Below, piece after piece: positions 20,332-24,759 of a stretch of 36,900 nt of DNA. This DNA is from Escherichia phage SaltyDalty. The notes under the pieces are model-generated. The model was given only the letters and a program-made list of their open reading frames with translations. It did not search any database and was not told the DNA's origin. A program made the translations under genes and the position numbers. Where the stretch lies: sequence record PP925825.1, one strand, 5' to 3'. Each line of letters begins with the position of its first letter. Within the stretch, counting starts at the first letter, position 1.

Positions 20332-20532
20332 ATGTCTCAGAAGATAAAAACATTTAAGGGGTTGTCCATCCATCCTTGTGATGCCTTCAAGAATATGTCC
20401 TTGATTGTTGAAGCAGCTAGTTTGTTATCGGCGGTTGATGATGACGAGTATAGAGAAATTAGCGACATTCTTCTCGCGTTTGCCTGCAACTATGCAAACG
20501 AGGCCCATAAAAATGAATGGGATAAACGATAA
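20332..20532 (+). CDS. Hypothetical early protein
   Basis: 66-aa ORF, first gene after the left operator region, AT-rich. Confidence 0.5.
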   Translation: MSQKIKTFKGLSIHPCDAFKNMSLIVEAASLLSAVDDDEYREISDILLAFACNYANEAHKNEWDKR

Positions 20533-20954
20533 TGAAAAATCCAATCGAAATGCTAAATGATATTGCTGCGGAAATCACTGAGAATGCTTCGTTACTGGAG
20601 GTTATTTACCGCATAAATGAATTTTCACCGGAAGCCGATAACACAATTTCCTGCCTGATTCGTTCTATGCTAAAGACCAGCCAAACTGCTTACGAGTATG
20701 TGGAGCAACTTAGCATCCATGCTGGAGCTGAGTGTCAACGGGGACAAAAATTAGAGTCGCTAACAGCGCTAGCTAATCAACTTAACTCTTGGGCTTGTGA
20801 TATCGGCGATTGTAAGCTTGCCGTTTATAATTCAATGGATGATATACCAACAGAATCAAACTCAATTGGGGTTTTAAGTCTCGTCTCCCAAAAACTGGAT
20901 GAAATGCAGAGCATTATTAGCTCTAAAGCGGACAAGATCGAATTCAATAAGTAA
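20532..20954 (+). CDS. Hypothetical early protein
   Basis: 140-aa ORF with start overlapping the upstream stop (TAATG); AT-rich. Confidence 0.55.
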   Translation: MKNPIEMLNDIAAEITENASLLEVIYRINEFSPEADNTISCLIRSMLKTSQTAYEYVEQLSIHAGAECQRGQKLESLTALANQLNSWACDIGDCKLAVYNSMDDIPTESNSIGVLSLVSQKLDEMQSIISSKADKIEFNK

Positions 20955-21146
20955 CGCTAAACAATAAAACAAATAACACCTTCACTGGTGTGGCTTCCTG
21001 CAACCTGAAAACAGGATTAGGTTAAAAATGACATTCATCAAAGACAGAGCAGCTTATAAAACTGCGCGGCTTTTCTTCGAGGCCTATGGCGAAGAATACC
21101 GCCATATCACAGACCTTTTCATGCGCAAAGCTTATGGAGTCTGAAT

Positions 21147-21350
21147 ATGCTTAGCAAAGATAGTTCAATCGAAACCGCTAAAAACACAGCAGATAACCTT
21201 TATCAGTTAATGGAGTTAATTAACTCGAACATTACTGATATGGATATTGAGCAAATAATTTCCTTATCAGGCCTCTGCCTCGATTTATCGGCTCAGGTTT
21301 CTATGTGGATGGATTCGGAGTTTGAACGCCGTGAAAAACAACGTAATTGA
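21147..21350 (+). CDS. Hypothetical early protein
   Basis: 67-aa ORF, AT-rich. Confidence 0.45.
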   Translation: MLSKDSSIETAKNTADNLYQLMELINSNITDMDIEQIISLSGLCLDLSAQVSMWMDSEFERREKQRN

Positions 21351-21693
21351 AACCTACCGACGCCGAATTTTAAAGGCAGCGTTATTACGCCACCAACGTA
21401 AAACAGGCACAACCTGCATTGTTATTACTCTTCCGAAAGGCGGAATAACGACCATGGAGCTGACCGAGATTTTATTCGACGGGCTTCTGTGCCGGTTTGA
21501 AAAAATGGCGCGAAGTGAGCATGGCCCGGTGGCAGGCGATAAAGCTATCCGCGATTTGTACCGGAATGCAGTTGATGTGAATGGTCATGGCGAATACCTG
21601 ACTGAAAGCGGAAAGCTGCTGGTTGATGAGCTTGTGGCAGAGCTGGTCGAACATGCTAAGAAAACAGCGGCCATCACGCAGGAGCATTCATGA
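21322..21693 (+). CDS. Hypothetical early protein
   Basis: 123-aa ORF; true start may be the internal Met (MELTEILF). Confidence 0.45.
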   Translation: MNAVKNNVIETYRRRILKAALLRHQRKTGTTCIVITLPKGGITTMELTEILFDGLLCRFEKMARSEHGPVAGDKAIRDLYRNAVDVNGHGEYLTESGKLLVDELVAELVEHAKKTAAITQEHS

Positions 21694-21908
21694 CACTTAC
21701 TGCGATCCGAATCCCTGAATGGGTTCACGAAAGGGCTGTGCGTGTGCTGCGCCAGCACCGCGCCGGGCGGATCCACCCCCGCCGCATGCACAAGACTGGC
21801 TATCTGAGCCTGAGTGTGAATCTCCGCTGGCGGCTACTATCCCGCGATGGCGGCAAGAACTGGGAAGTAATGAGCCATGAAACCTATAACCGGGAGAAAG
21901 ACAGATGA
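21690..21908 (+). CDS. Hypothetical early protein
   Basis: 72-aa basic ORF translationally coupled to neighbours. Confidence 0.4.
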   Translation: MTLTAIRIPEWVHERAVRVLRQHRAGRIHPRRMHKTGYLSLSVNLRWRLLSRDGGKNWEVMSHETYNREKDR

Positions 21909-22411
21909 CTGACTTTGAAAAAGATAACGTGAAGCAGCTTGTTGCTCGCCTGAAGGAAATCCAGAAGCAATCCGACGTAACGATTCCTGGTTGGATGCTT
22001 GACGAAAACCGCTATGGCAAGGGCTCCCTTACTTTAGAAGAGCAGCATGAGTGGGCTCAAACCGTCGTCCAGTCCATGCGCGGTACGGTCGCCCTTCTTT
22101 ATCTCATCAGCTGCGAAAACCGCTGGGGACTCCGTGACGGGCAATACCAGTTTAAAACCGAGGAGTTTACCTTCGGCTTAACCCGGGAACTTATTGAAAA
22201 TCTGCTGATTAAGCATGTGGAGTGCGCACTGATCGAGCACAAGCCTGAGGAACGCTATCTGGCGGTTTACCAGTTCTACTACGCCAACGATCAGCGCCTG
22301 AAAGAAGTCGGTCATTCGTGGTTCGCAGAGTTTCTCGACGAGATTTTTGTAGATCTCGCTGCCCAGCTGCGCACCGGTAAAACAATGCCAGCCAATCACG
22401 TTTTGCATTAA
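21905..22411 (+). CDS. Hypothetical early protein
   Basis: 168-aa ORF, ATGA overlap with upstream gene. Confidence 0.55.
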   Translation: MTDFEKDNVKQLVARLKEIQKQSDVTIPGWMLDENRYGKGSLTLEEQHEWAQTVVQSMRGTVALLYLISCENRWGLRDGQYQFKTEEFTFGLTRELIENLLIKHVECALIEHKPEERYLAVYQFYYANDQRLKEVGHSWFAEFLDEIFVDLAAQLRTGKTMPANHVLH

Positions 22412-23284: not shown

Positions 23285-23535
23285 TGGAACTGCTTCCTTG
23301 CCCACTTTGTGGCAACGATGAAATAGATTTCGATTCTGTGCTTTATGAAGGCGAGCCAATGTTTGTAGTCCGTTGCGATTGCTGCAGTGTGAGTCTAGCT
23401 CCGCAAGCTCGTGATATGGCTGCGGCCATCTGGAACCAGCGAGCACCACGGCCGAAAGAAGCGACAGATTCATACCAAATTCTTGAGCACCCATCAGTGG
23501 GGCGATTTCAGATCATTAAGCCGGAGGGTTTCTGA
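23284..23535 (+). CDS. lar: Lar-family restriction-alleviation protein
   Basis: LPCPLCG ... RCDCC zinc-ribbon Cys pairs and AIWNQR motif in an 83-aa protein. Confidence 0.7.
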   Translation: MELLPCPLCGNDEIDFDSVLYEGEPMFVVRCDCCSVSLAPQARDMAAAIWNQRAPRPKEATDSYQILEHPSVGRFQIIKPEGF

Positions 23536-23536
23536 A

Positions 23537-23959
23537 GTGAATAATGATATCTGGAATCCGGCTGGCTCTATTGAGCTGGCCCACCGGCAGGCTCTGACAT
23601 GTGTATGTGATGCCTACTTGTTTCATTTGGTCAGCCTGCACCGTCGCCCTGTATATCGCCACCAGTACGGTGATATTTCGCTTAATCAGACAGCATTACA
23701 GGGATTCATCGACTCGTACCTCGCTGATAAGGGATGGAGTATGGAGCGTCGCCGTGCACATTACATCAACATTCTCGATCTCATCCGCTATATGGGTCGA
23801 AAAAACTCGGATTTCATCGACTGGGGCACGGTGCCAACGCTAACCCCTCGTGGAATTCGCTGGTTGAACGCCTGTTTCTCAAGACTGGGGGATATGGTGA
23901 ACAGTTATGGCGGATTGGAAGGTTACATCACTGCTACTAAGAAAGGTGCGGGCCAATGA
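23537..23959 (+). CDS. Hypothetical protein
   Basis: ORF 23411..23959 overlaps lar; probable GTG start at 23537 just after the lar stop. Confidence 0.45.
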   Translation: MNNDIWNPAGSIELAHRQALTCVCDAYLFHLVSLHRRPVYRHQYGDISLNQTALQGFIDSYLADKGWSMERRRAHYINILDLIRYMGRKNSDFIDWGTVPTLTPRGIRWLNACFSRLGDMVNSYGGLEGYITATKKGAGQ

Positions 23960-24081
23960 AAAAAGTATCTGAGCTGGTGATGTTTACTCTTTTCTTCTCC
24001 AGCCTTACGGGGATTGGGTTAACAGCGGGGTTCTACTGTTTTATCGGAGTATGCAAGCTGCTTTGGAGGATTGTTGGATGA
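23956..24081 (+). CDS. Putative 41-aa hydrophobic membrane peptide (not in the supplied ORF track)
   Basis: ATG 23956 overlaps upstream stop (ATGA), GAAAGGTG RBS, translation MKKVSELVMFTLFFSSLTGIGLTAGFYCFIGVCKLLWRIVG, stop overlaps the next gene's ATG. Confidence 0.35.
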   Translation: MKKVSELVMFTLFFSSLTGIGLTAGFYCFIGVCKLLWRIVG

Positions 24082-24434
24082 AAGCTGAATCCATTGATGT
24101 TAACCAACTGGTCACAATAAACGACCACCTGCAGGCGCTGGTCACGGCTGAAGATGTCATTGCCAGTATCAATTCGCAGCTTGAAACCGTTATCGACAAC
24201 GACTACGGCTGGCGGCACCGGGCAAATGTAGCGCGGGTTAAGTGGCAGAACACACGGAAACGTATCACTGCCCGCCTGGCCGTATTGCGTCAATTGGAGC
24301 GAGAGAGAAATATTGAGCGTCAAAAATCGCGGGATGAATTGCTCATCAGGGCCCTGATGAATGAGGTATCAGCTGAAATTTTCCGCCGCTGCTGTGAGTC
24401 CGTAGAAAGGGAAATGGAGGTGTGCAGTGAGTGA
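24078..24434 (+). CDS. Hypothetical protein
   Basis: ATG 24078 with GGAGG 8 nt upstream, preferred over the track start at 24051. Confidence 0.5.
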   Translation: MKAESIDVNQLVTINDHLQALVTAEDVIASINSQLETVIDNDYGWRHRANVARVKWQNTRKRITARLAVLRQLERERNIERQKSRDELLIRALMNEVSAEIFRRCCESVEREMEVCSE

Positions 24435-24759
24435 GTCGAATTTGTTCGAGCTTGTTCAATTGATTAAATCCGCTGCCGGCGATCCCTCTGCAATGACCGA
24501 TGCTATCTGGGAAGCTGGTTATCGCCAGCCTGAGAGAACAGAGGAGGAGGCCGCCAAAATAACGATCGACACCTTCTTCTACTGCATGGCCTTCGACATG
24601 CCCACGGAATTCTGGCCACGCGATTACGAGAGCGTTCTCAAGAATGAACTGATGAAAGCTGTTGGTGGTGAGGATGGAGAGCTGGCCTACGCCACCGCCA
24701 GCGAAATTGCCAAAAGCGTTATCAATGCTGGATTCAGCAAGGAGGCCGCCAATGGATGA
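24427..24759 (+). CDS. Hypothetical acidic protein
   Basis: 110-aa ORF overlapping the upstream gene end. Confidence 0.5.
   Translation: MSESNLFELVQLIKSAAGDPSAMTDAIWEAGYRQPERTEEEAAKITIDTFFYCMAFDMPTEFWPRDYESVLKNELMKAVGGEDGELAYATASEIAKSVINAGFSKEAANG

Follow-up and report, generated by a model that had tools for sequence, protein, structure and literature searches.

The stretch of DNA analysed here is the 36,900-nt sequence of Escherichia phage SaltyDalty (PP925825.1), which is called the window and to which all coordinates refer. The interval 20332-24759 is probably an early-left operon (pL-type), belonging to a temperate phage of the Enterobacter/Kosakonia group that is mosaic and HK97-like (Hendrixvirinae-type). 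According to the listing of open reading frames (ORFs) and a direct reading of the sequence, it is filled by 13 plus-strand ORFs, named g1 to g13, that stand between a CI-type repressor gene and the excisionase and integrase genes (xis and int). It is an ordinary early-left accessory operon, of which public Enterobacter assemblies contain many near-identical copies. The chief addition to the original prediction, which was made from the sequence alone, is the gene g6, whose product is modelled with a RelE/ParE-like fold, together with its constant partner g5.

The genes are closely packed. At ten of the 12 junctions the neighbouring genes overlap (ATGA, TAATG or longer) or stand 1-2 nt apart, the exceptions being g2/g3 (73 nt) and g7/g8 (6 nt). 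The individual distances, in nt, are -1 for g1/g2 (TAATG), +73 for g2/g3, +2 for g3/g4, -20 for g4/g5, -4 for g5/g6 (ATGA), -4 for g6/g7, +6 for g7/g8, -1 for g8/g9 (TAATG), +1 for g9/g10, -4 for g10/g11, -4 for g11/g12 and -8 for g12/g13. A Shine-Dalgarno-like motif can be read 5' of every ORF start, and xis and int, which are likewise ATGA-coupled, close the operon. The original description of about 13 tightly coupled small plus-strand ORFs ahead of xis/int is thus borne out. Its statement that the first three genes are AT-rich holds for the composition (GC content of 0.402 for 20332-21350, versus 0.508 for the window and 0.515 for g5-g13), but four ORFs lie there (g1-g4), since the conserved g3, of 38 amino acids (aa), has to be included. 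The features are as follows (pI, isoelectric point; GRAVY, grand average of hydropathy).

19190-19918, plus strand: CI-type repressor gene; HTH_3 and Peptidase_S24 (E 1.7e-17) in Pfam; PHROG 4, 'transcriptional repressor'
20241-20298, plus strand: left operator and predicted promoter; promoter scan and half-sites common to the cI/cro region
20332-20532, plus strand: g1, 66 aa, AT-rich; phrog_4587 (E 1e-29)
20532-20954, plus strand: g2, 140 aa, acidic (pI 4.4); phrog_27579 over the whole protein and phrog_6882 over the N-terminal half
21028-21144, plus strand: g3, 38 aa, basic; conserved small gene
21147-21350, plus strand: g4, 67 aa, acidic (pI 4.3); phrog_8959 (E 1.4e-30)
21331-21693, plus strand: g5, 120 aa, GTG start; near-constant upstream partner of g6
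21690-21908, plus strand: g6, 72 aa, pI 11.5; Pfam PF24732 (ParE_like)
21905-22411, plus strand: g7, 168 aa; phrog_37204
22418-23284, plus strand: g8, 288 aa, 'Ant-like'; ORF6N N-terminal domain and weak KilAC/ANT C-terminal region
23284-23535, plus strand: g9, 83 aa; zinc-ribbon protein of the Lar (restriction-alleviation) family
23537-23959, plus strand: g10, 140 aa, GTG start; phrog_24826, weak winged-helix hint
23956-24081, plus strand: g11, 41 aa, hydrophobic (GRAVY 1.2); ATGA overlaps at both ends, Shine-Dalgarno-like motif
24078-24434, plus strand: g12, 118 aa; phrog_6158 (E 9e-29)
24427-24759, plus strand: g13, 110 aa, GTG start, acidic (pI 4.3); phrog_36275
24822-25070, plus strand: xis, DUF1233 excisionase (Pfam, E 3.3e-34); PHROG 539
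25067-26407, plus strand: int, tyrosine integrase; Arm-DNA-bind_2 and Phage_integrase in Pfam; PHROG 1

The spacer between cI and g1 (19919-20331, 413 nt, GC content 0.397) holds the left operators, and a terminator-like hairpin lies after cI at 19970-19991. The promoter scan gave a sigma-70-like candidate, TTGCAA-17-TATCAT, at 20270-20298. The ATAGCAAT/ATTGCTAT half-sites found around and 5' of this candidate recur in the cI/cro intergenic region, where the half-site motif makes the perfect palindrome ATAGCAATTGCTAT. Inverted ATAGCAAT/CTATTGC half-sites are common to 19135-19176 (cI/cro) and 20241-20298, and a 42-nt stretch at the left operator is 74% identical to the cI/cro operator region 19135-19176. 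At the sequence level, such shared half-sites are what one would expect if a single repressor acted at both a left and a right operator. Together with CI upstream and xis/int downstream, they agree with the original outline of an operon running from the left operator into xis/int. The spacer also contains a 62-aa minus-strand ORF (19968-20156) and a 55-aa plus-strand ORF (20118-20285), for neither of which Pfam gave a match.

Transcription of the operon would be from pL only. No further plus-strand promoter-like site was predicted in 20298-26428, and the two plus-strand terminator-like sites found there are weak, both lie within genes and their number is not above chance. Antitermination seems to be unneeded, because there is no convincing plus-strand terminator between the promoter and int. 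The absence of an N-like antiterminator and of exo/bet, erf and recT homologues had been stated before and is upheld: searches of Pfam, PHROGs and NCBIfam gave no N-type antiterminator and no exo/bet/gam, erf or recT family for any of the 13 ORFs. A scan of 18500-27500 gave no Rfam family (E up to 1). Antitermination dependent on boxA/Nus was considered and rejected, as the operon has no boxA at two or fewer mismatches. A BoxA-regulated ParE-like toxin has been reported (PMC5725501); its gene is distinct from g6.

The operon shares several properties with the lambdoid pL operons, such as those of lambda, HK97 and P22. It lies between the repressor gene and xis/int and would be transcribed away from cI, its predicted promoter is overlapped by operators that carry the right-operator motif (here at the sequence level only), and its content is highly mosaic and consists of small genes, putatively non-essential, that include one of the restriction-alleviation type, as in lambda (Ral) and Rac (Lar). 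Unlike lambdoid pL operons, it has no N, nut/boxA, cIII, kil, gam, exo/bet or erf/recT, an AT-rich block of genes without assigned function comes first after the promoter, and a RelE/ParE-fold gene appears to be present.

The mosaic character is evident from the relatives. The segment 18689-21881 (cro, cI, left operator and g1-g6) is 92% identical to Escherichia phage Fraca (LR597645, Hendrixvirinae), with the same gene order. Downstream of g6, Fraca differs, having a 135-aa protein, a small membrane protein, an SPFH protein and another ORF6N protein. For the overlapping segment 21048-26456, which runs from g3 to int, Enterobacter prophages and IMG/VR contigs show an identity of about 94%. Phage Fostie (PP925832) holds g7-g13 at about 74-85%, without g11; its g12 and g13 homologues are joined into an annotated ORF of 226 aa (locus L001, 5919-6599) by a frame change in the g12 C-terminus. 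In the records of Fraca and Fostie these genes are annotated as hypothetical, except for Ant/ORF6N and Lar. Escherichia coli was rejected as the host, since megablast against 5,426 complete E. coli genomes returned fragments only and the nearest proteins are those of Enterobacter and Kosakonia.

The site 3' of g6 is variable in these loci. The gene directly following g6 differs among close relatives: 48 loci have one for a basic 137-aa protein, 12 have g7, and several further genes occur elsewhere. In the 51 related loci with both g6 and xis, the interval between them ranges from 0.44 to 3.2 kb and contains 22 protein families in 21 arrangements. This position had been presented as a hotspot for anti-defence and host-takeover genes; it is a hotspot of gene content, but variability says nothing about function. 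The varying neighbour also led to rejection of the gene 3' of g6 as a HigA-like antitoxin in HigBA order.

The best family match in the operon is that of g6 to Pfam PF24732 (ParE_like), with an E value of 1.6e-21 and 76.5 bits against a cut-off of 24.4. The Lar-like protein and the ORF6N/KilAC protein had been regarded as the only recognisable products; both are confirmed, the KilAC part below threshold, but g6 must be added to them. The homologues of g6, of about 72 aa, form 85 clusters at 90% identity, all of them from Enterobacterales, and are named 'ParE family toxin-like protein' at NCBI; the nearest among them is from Kosakonia cowanii (90%). Among the 600 viral-contig pattern matches listed, 578 encode a relative. 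The AlphaFold2 model of g6 (predicted local distance difference test score, pLDDT, of 90) has the topology β1-α1-β2-β3-β4-α2, and its leading Foldseek matches in the Protein Data Bank (PDB) are mostly YafQ, YoeB, RelK, HigB, GraT and ParE2, with E values of 0.09-1.3 and template modelling (TM) scores of 0.36-0.55. Residues R46, W47, R48, H63, E64 and Y66 are nearly invariant, and the W-R-L-L-S...H-E-x-Y-N motifs are retained even in the most distant PF24732 members. In a weak alignment with HigB, Y66 stands opposite the catalytic Tyr91. The ratio of non-synonymous to synonymous substitution rates (dN/dS) of 0.09 indicates strong purifying selection. Judging by the model, g6 may be described, weakly, as a minimal protein of the RelE/ParE-superfamily fold that is toxin-like by resemblance.

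The resemblance to RelE/ParE toxins (HigB, YoeB, YafQ, RelE, and ParE2 of paaR2-paaA2-parE2) concerns the β-α-β3-α core, the high pI, conserved Arg residues on the central strand, H-E-x-Y at the C-terminal end, and the location on a prophage with translational coupling to an upstream partner. Unlike these toxins, g6 has 72 aa only, has no sequence-level match to solved toxins and, in the model, is without the canonical fold's second N-terminal helix. The pair also departs from RelE/ParE modules in standing inside a lytic early operon, and the toxicity of g6 is putative.

The upstream partner of g6 is almost invariable. A g5 homologue was found at 79 of the 80 IMG/VR loci in which g6 is at least 72% identical, the sole exception being truncated upstream, and at all 21 close loci in data with one genome per species. 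Combining both sets, g5 occurs together with g6 in 100 of 101 related loci with g6 at least 64% identical. The link persists despite variation in cI, in g1-g4, in the downstream genes and in xis/int. A few genomes and metagenomes have g5 and g6 fused in a single ORF of 191-200 aa (Pseudocitrobacter faecalis, L092, 3623-4222; P0174, P0194 and P0205); these fusions may be real or may be frameshift artefacts at the overlapping junction. The g5 protein is helical with two β-hairpins. In this reading, g5-g6 would be a conserved functional pair built round a RelE/ParE-fold protein, and by its position it would be expressed early in lytic growth.

Several results weigh against this reading of the operon and of its g5-g6 pair. 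Transcription, toxicity and restriction alleviation are all activities that we infer from the sequence. Promoter-like sites are no more numerous in the region than chance would give, and the promoter call therefore depends on position and shared operators. The fold matches of g6 are weak (best E 0.09, TM scores not above 0.55), and its profile found no solved relative among PDB sequences, only chance matches of the Asp-box-like type S-x-D-G-G-x-x-W. The position of the HigB catalytic His92 is Asn or Ser in the g6 family, according to the same weak alignment. No known antitoxin or DNA-binding fold was recognised in g5, nor does the protein match any other known fold. In about half of the relatives, g5 and g6 are separated by an extra gene of about 70-90 aa, here called gX, and phage Fostie has a g5 homologue without g6. 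Two assignments downstream are incomplete as well: g9 scores 34.2 bits with the NCBIfam model TIGR03655, under its cut-off of 39.6, and the KilAC/ANT match of g8 (Pfam PF03374, E 0.029) reaches 15.1 bits, under the cut-off of 25.3.

The gX gene overlaps the start of g6 (for instance, L043:6820-7029, L058:6752-6988 and L019:6730-7029) and occurs as tandem pairs in L040 and L093. It has no Pfam or NCBIfam match. The g5-gX-g6 layout, which is not present in the window, recalls the three-component ParE systems.

Distant PF24732 genes in Erwinia, Acerihabitans, Trabulsiella and Xenorhabdus (L108-L120) are backbone genes of integrative and conjugative elements (ICEs) of the PFGI-1/SPI-7 type, and some Xenorhabdus genomes have several copies. 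The ICE-borne genes stand between DUF2857 and a gene for an STY4528-family replication protein, with an ICE-type ParB nearby. They belong to the same Pfam family as g6 (E 1e-17 to 1e-20), share with it the invariant W-R-L-L-S-K/R-D-x-G...H-E-x-Y-N motifs and, like g6, are ATGA-coupled to the upstream gene. They differ in these neighbours and in being without g5, gX and a phage context. Yersinia ruckeri and one metagenomic contig have distant PF24732 members with unrelated neighbours. A relationship of g5 to DUF2857 was rejected (hhalign probability 0.1%).

These data bear on two other explanations of g6. One holds that g5-g6 is a classical type II toxin-antitoxin module, made up of a labile antitoxin, g5, and a RelE/ParE-type toxin, g6, and serving prophage maintenance or abortive-infection defence of the lysogen, that is, defence and not counter-defence. 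The Pfam membership of g6 and the RelE/ParE-like fold of its model agree with this, as do its very basic character, the ATGA overlap with g5, their near-perfect co-occurrence across otherwise mosaic backgrounds, the g5::g6 fusions, and the placement of the near-invariant R46/R48 and H63-E64-x-Y66 where RelE-family catalytic residues lie. However, g5 overlaps g4 by 20 nt, which leaves no gap where an autoregulated promoter could lie, and no promoter is predicted upstream of g5; besides the missing antitoxin fold, the gene interposed in about half of the relatives and the g5 homologue without g6 in Fostie, the unrelated neighbours of distant PF24732 genes (DUF2857 in ICEs, other genes in Yersinia) and the lack of a PADLOC match speak against it. 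We consider such a classical module rather unlikely, given that g5 lacks an antitoxin fold, that a separate promoter could not fit upstream of it and that PF24732 members at greater distance belong to ICE backbones.

The other explanation, in which g6 would have the RelE/ParE fold but no toxicity and would act in regulation or in connection with replication, a role common to mobile elements, 'toxin' being a fold-based misnomer, is possible though doubtful. It draws on the ICE backbone relatives, ATGA-coupled to DUF2857 and just upstream of the replication protein gene, and also on the missing helix, the non-conserved His92 position and the lack of a recognisable antitoxin. On the other hand, the basic and H-E-x-Y residues are strongly conserved in a RelE-like arrangement, the pI is high, and the great majority of the leading structural neighbours are active toxins. 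Any catalytic competence of g6 is putative, Y66 falling opposite Tyr91 but Asn or Ser occupying the His92 position. Within the early-left operon, g6 could equally be a host-takeover, defence or regulatory protein. Literature searches on PF24732, 'ParE family toxin-like' and the phages Fostie, CharmingMan and LMessi gave no study of these genes.

The Lar-like character of g9, part of the original prediction, agrees with a Pfam PF14354 (Lar_restr_allev) score of 34.5 bits against a cut-off of 28.6; g9 appears to be a member of the Lar family by Pfam, not by the stricter TIGR03655 model. It also matches PHROG 599 and shows CPLC...CDCC cysteines on reading the sequence. The founding member of the Lar family acts in type I restriction alleviation and modification enhancement, as known for Rac Lar and lambda Ral (PMC2993543). 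Like Lar (RalR) of Rac and lambda Ral, g9 has the CxxC...C-x-CC zinc-ribbon cysteines and the A-x-W-N-x-R motif, and its place, as that of Lar in Rac, is within the early-left region, close to the recombination/xis end. It differs in its length of 83 aa versus about 64 aa for Lar, and restriction alleviation by g9 is only putative. The N-terminal domain of g8 is a clear ORF6N domain (Pfam PF10543, E 1.1e-23, 83.8 bits against 27.8), and PHROG 63, 'anti-repressor Ant', aligns over residues 16-282; any antirepressor activity of g8 is putative. An antirepressor is not required for the induction of the phage itself, because its own CI has an S24 autocleavage domain. The PADLOC candidate system PDC-S05 matches the ORF6N domain of g8 only.

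Four genes of the operon can be placed in a known family, g6 among them, and nine ORFs (g1-g4, g7 and g10-g13) are left without assignment. Not all ORFs could thus be assigned to ordinary families, which leaves the counter-defence proposal unrefuted. For g1-g4, g7 and g11-g13, searches of Pfam, NCBIfam and PHROGs gave only PHROGs of unknown function or nothing, and nine of the ten ORFs submitted to PADLOC were blank, g8 excepted (g3, g9 and g11 were left out). All nine are real or at least plausible genes. Eleven ORFs have divergent homologues and, compared with these at related loci, dN/dS is 0.08-0.39 for g2-g10, g12 and g13 wherever the synonymous rate (dS) is unsaturated.

With regard to the AT-rich block, g1 is 98% identical to its homologue in Fraca and has 29-43% protein identity at other loci, where dS is saturated; Pfam, NCBIfam and PADLOC gave nothing for it. 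The g2 protein consists of two modules that are also found as separate genes (dN/dS 0.19) and has no PDB match. Homologues of g3 occur at 45 of 86 loci, with 56 family members of 35-46 aa and dN/dS of 0.17-0.28, and g4 has 84 family members in 86 loci. Paralogy among g1, the N and C halves of g2, g3 and g4 was rejected, since the related-locus profiles share no members and hhalign probabilities do not exceed 1.8%.

Further downstream, g7 belongs to a narrow family, with 28 clusters among 1.84 billion representatives, dN/dS of 0.12-0.21 and 13 invariant residues (P28, E49, R59, Y66, C70, R73, G75, F83, E98, E106, Y125, D145 and the C-terminal H168). Pfam scans of aligned members and a PDB profile search gave no relative, and scanning GTDB genomes with a peptide pattern was likewise negative. 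An identical g7 protein is recorded in 1640 blocks of public assemblies, and the g7-bearing prophages among those listed adjoin pncB/asnS or pgsA/uvrC. The hint for g10 comes from the Pfam family PriA-like_WH (E 4.6e-5, 23.7 bits, under the cut-off of 27); its dN/dS is 0.10-0.17 and it has no PDB match. Homologues of g12, 33-41% identical, were found at 27 loci, the distant ones usually beside xis (dN/dS 0.32-0.39), with chance-level PDB matches only. The 93 homologues of g13 are all 'hypothetical', the closest (99% identical) being from Enterobacter hormaechei; g13 has an invariant W-x-AGYRQP-x-R motif, dN/dS of 0.08-0.10 and no PDB relative.

That several of g1-g4, g7 and g10-g13 are novel counter-defence proteins, as originally proposed, is a reasonable guess to which only Lar points, and we regard it as less probable than not by a clear distance. 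The interval is a highly variable accessory one beside a Lar-family gene, all these genes would be expressed early by their position, and several of the small proteins are acidic (g2, pI 4.4; g4, pI 4.3; g13, pI 4.3), acidity being a property of some DNA-mimic anti-restriction proteins. Nevertheless, sequence and profile searches of Pfam, PHROGs, NCBIfam and PDB gave no similarity to a characterised anti-defence protein or fold, and variability and early expression fit host-takeover, superinfection exclusion or regulation equally.

It is also rather improbable that g11 and a 20-aa mini-ORF (MDEMVNLNNVWFHCRDLIVM, 24752-24814), which bridges g13 and xis, are not genes. Only identical copies of the two are known, so there is no evidence of selection, and g11 is an insertion relative to Fostie that is missing from some close relatives as well. 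The mini-ORF is probably a remnant of a 48-aa gene found directly upstream of xis in 17 related loci, whose C-terminus (…EVWCHCRGLDVV) its own end resembles. But g11 has a Shine-Dalgarno-like motif and ATGA coupling at both ends, which preserve the translational coupling from g10 to g12, and it is called as a gene in L121; its clean single hydrophobic span suggests that it is probably a small membrane protein.

The window as a whole has the appearance of an entire phage genome, about 37 kb long, with the cut falling within the tail genes. The minus strand carries head and late genes (1-17 kb) and tail genes (27-36.9 kb). There is a Q-type antiterminator region resembling the one in Fraca, and a DUF4222 gene lies between cro and the replication gene. 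A DinI-like gene is found 3' of int, in the region 26699-27028 (Pfam DinI, E 2.6e-22), with a promoter-like TTGACA-17-AAAAAT at 26699-26727 that is directly followed by the window's only perfect LexA-box consensus, CTGTATATTCAAACAG (26729-26744). By its sequence it looks like an SOS-regulated moron, whose start is probably the ATG near 26762 and not the TTG given by the ORF finder.

The early-left operon can be pictured as follows. In the lysogen, the CI-type repressor with its S24 autocleavage domain would sit on the operators overlapping the promoter at 20270-20298. SOS induction or infection would then give a single long transcript across the 13 translationally coupled small genes into xis and int. 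The operon is composed of exchangeable cassettes, namely the AT-rich g1-g4, the conserved pair g5-g6 and the block g7-g13. The first of them moves together with the immunity region. In the second, g6 may be a growth-inhibiting or RNA/ribosome-directed effector made early in lytic growth, with g5 as its modulator. The third, common in Enterobacter prophages, carries the genes for the ORF6N 'Ant-like' DNA-binding protein and the Lar-family protein.

A bolder view, which we think improbable, is that g5-(gX)-g6 is a new phage-borne effector system of the RelE/ParE fold, or that at least one of the alternating cassettes at the variable site downstream provides a new counter-defence protein. In the former case, expression of g5-(gX)-g6 would be triggered from the early-left promoter upon induction or infection, and the cassette, rather than serving as a maintenance pair, might cause host translation shutdown or disarm an RNA- or ribosome-based defence, g5 being a modulator of novel fold. 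In the latter, examples of candidates would be g7, in view of its invariant E, R, Y, C, D and H, and g13, which is acidic.

HK97-like prophages abound in clinical Enterobacter, Klebsiella and Citrobacter genomes, and the operon shows their variable accessory region in a clean, sharply bounded form. It brings to light a widespread cassette in which what appears to be a minimal RelE/ParE-fold protein is joined to a partner of unknown fold in a lytic-phase operon, an unexpected place for maintenance toxin-antitoxin modules. Further handles are the site 3' of g6, with its alternating unrelated genes (g7, the 137-aa basic protein and others), and the small acidic proteins near the Lar-type gene. 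Near-identical copies of these genes are already in public assemblies as hypothetical proteins, and if any of them are counter-defence or host-shutoff factors, the finding would be relevant to a large number of prophages.

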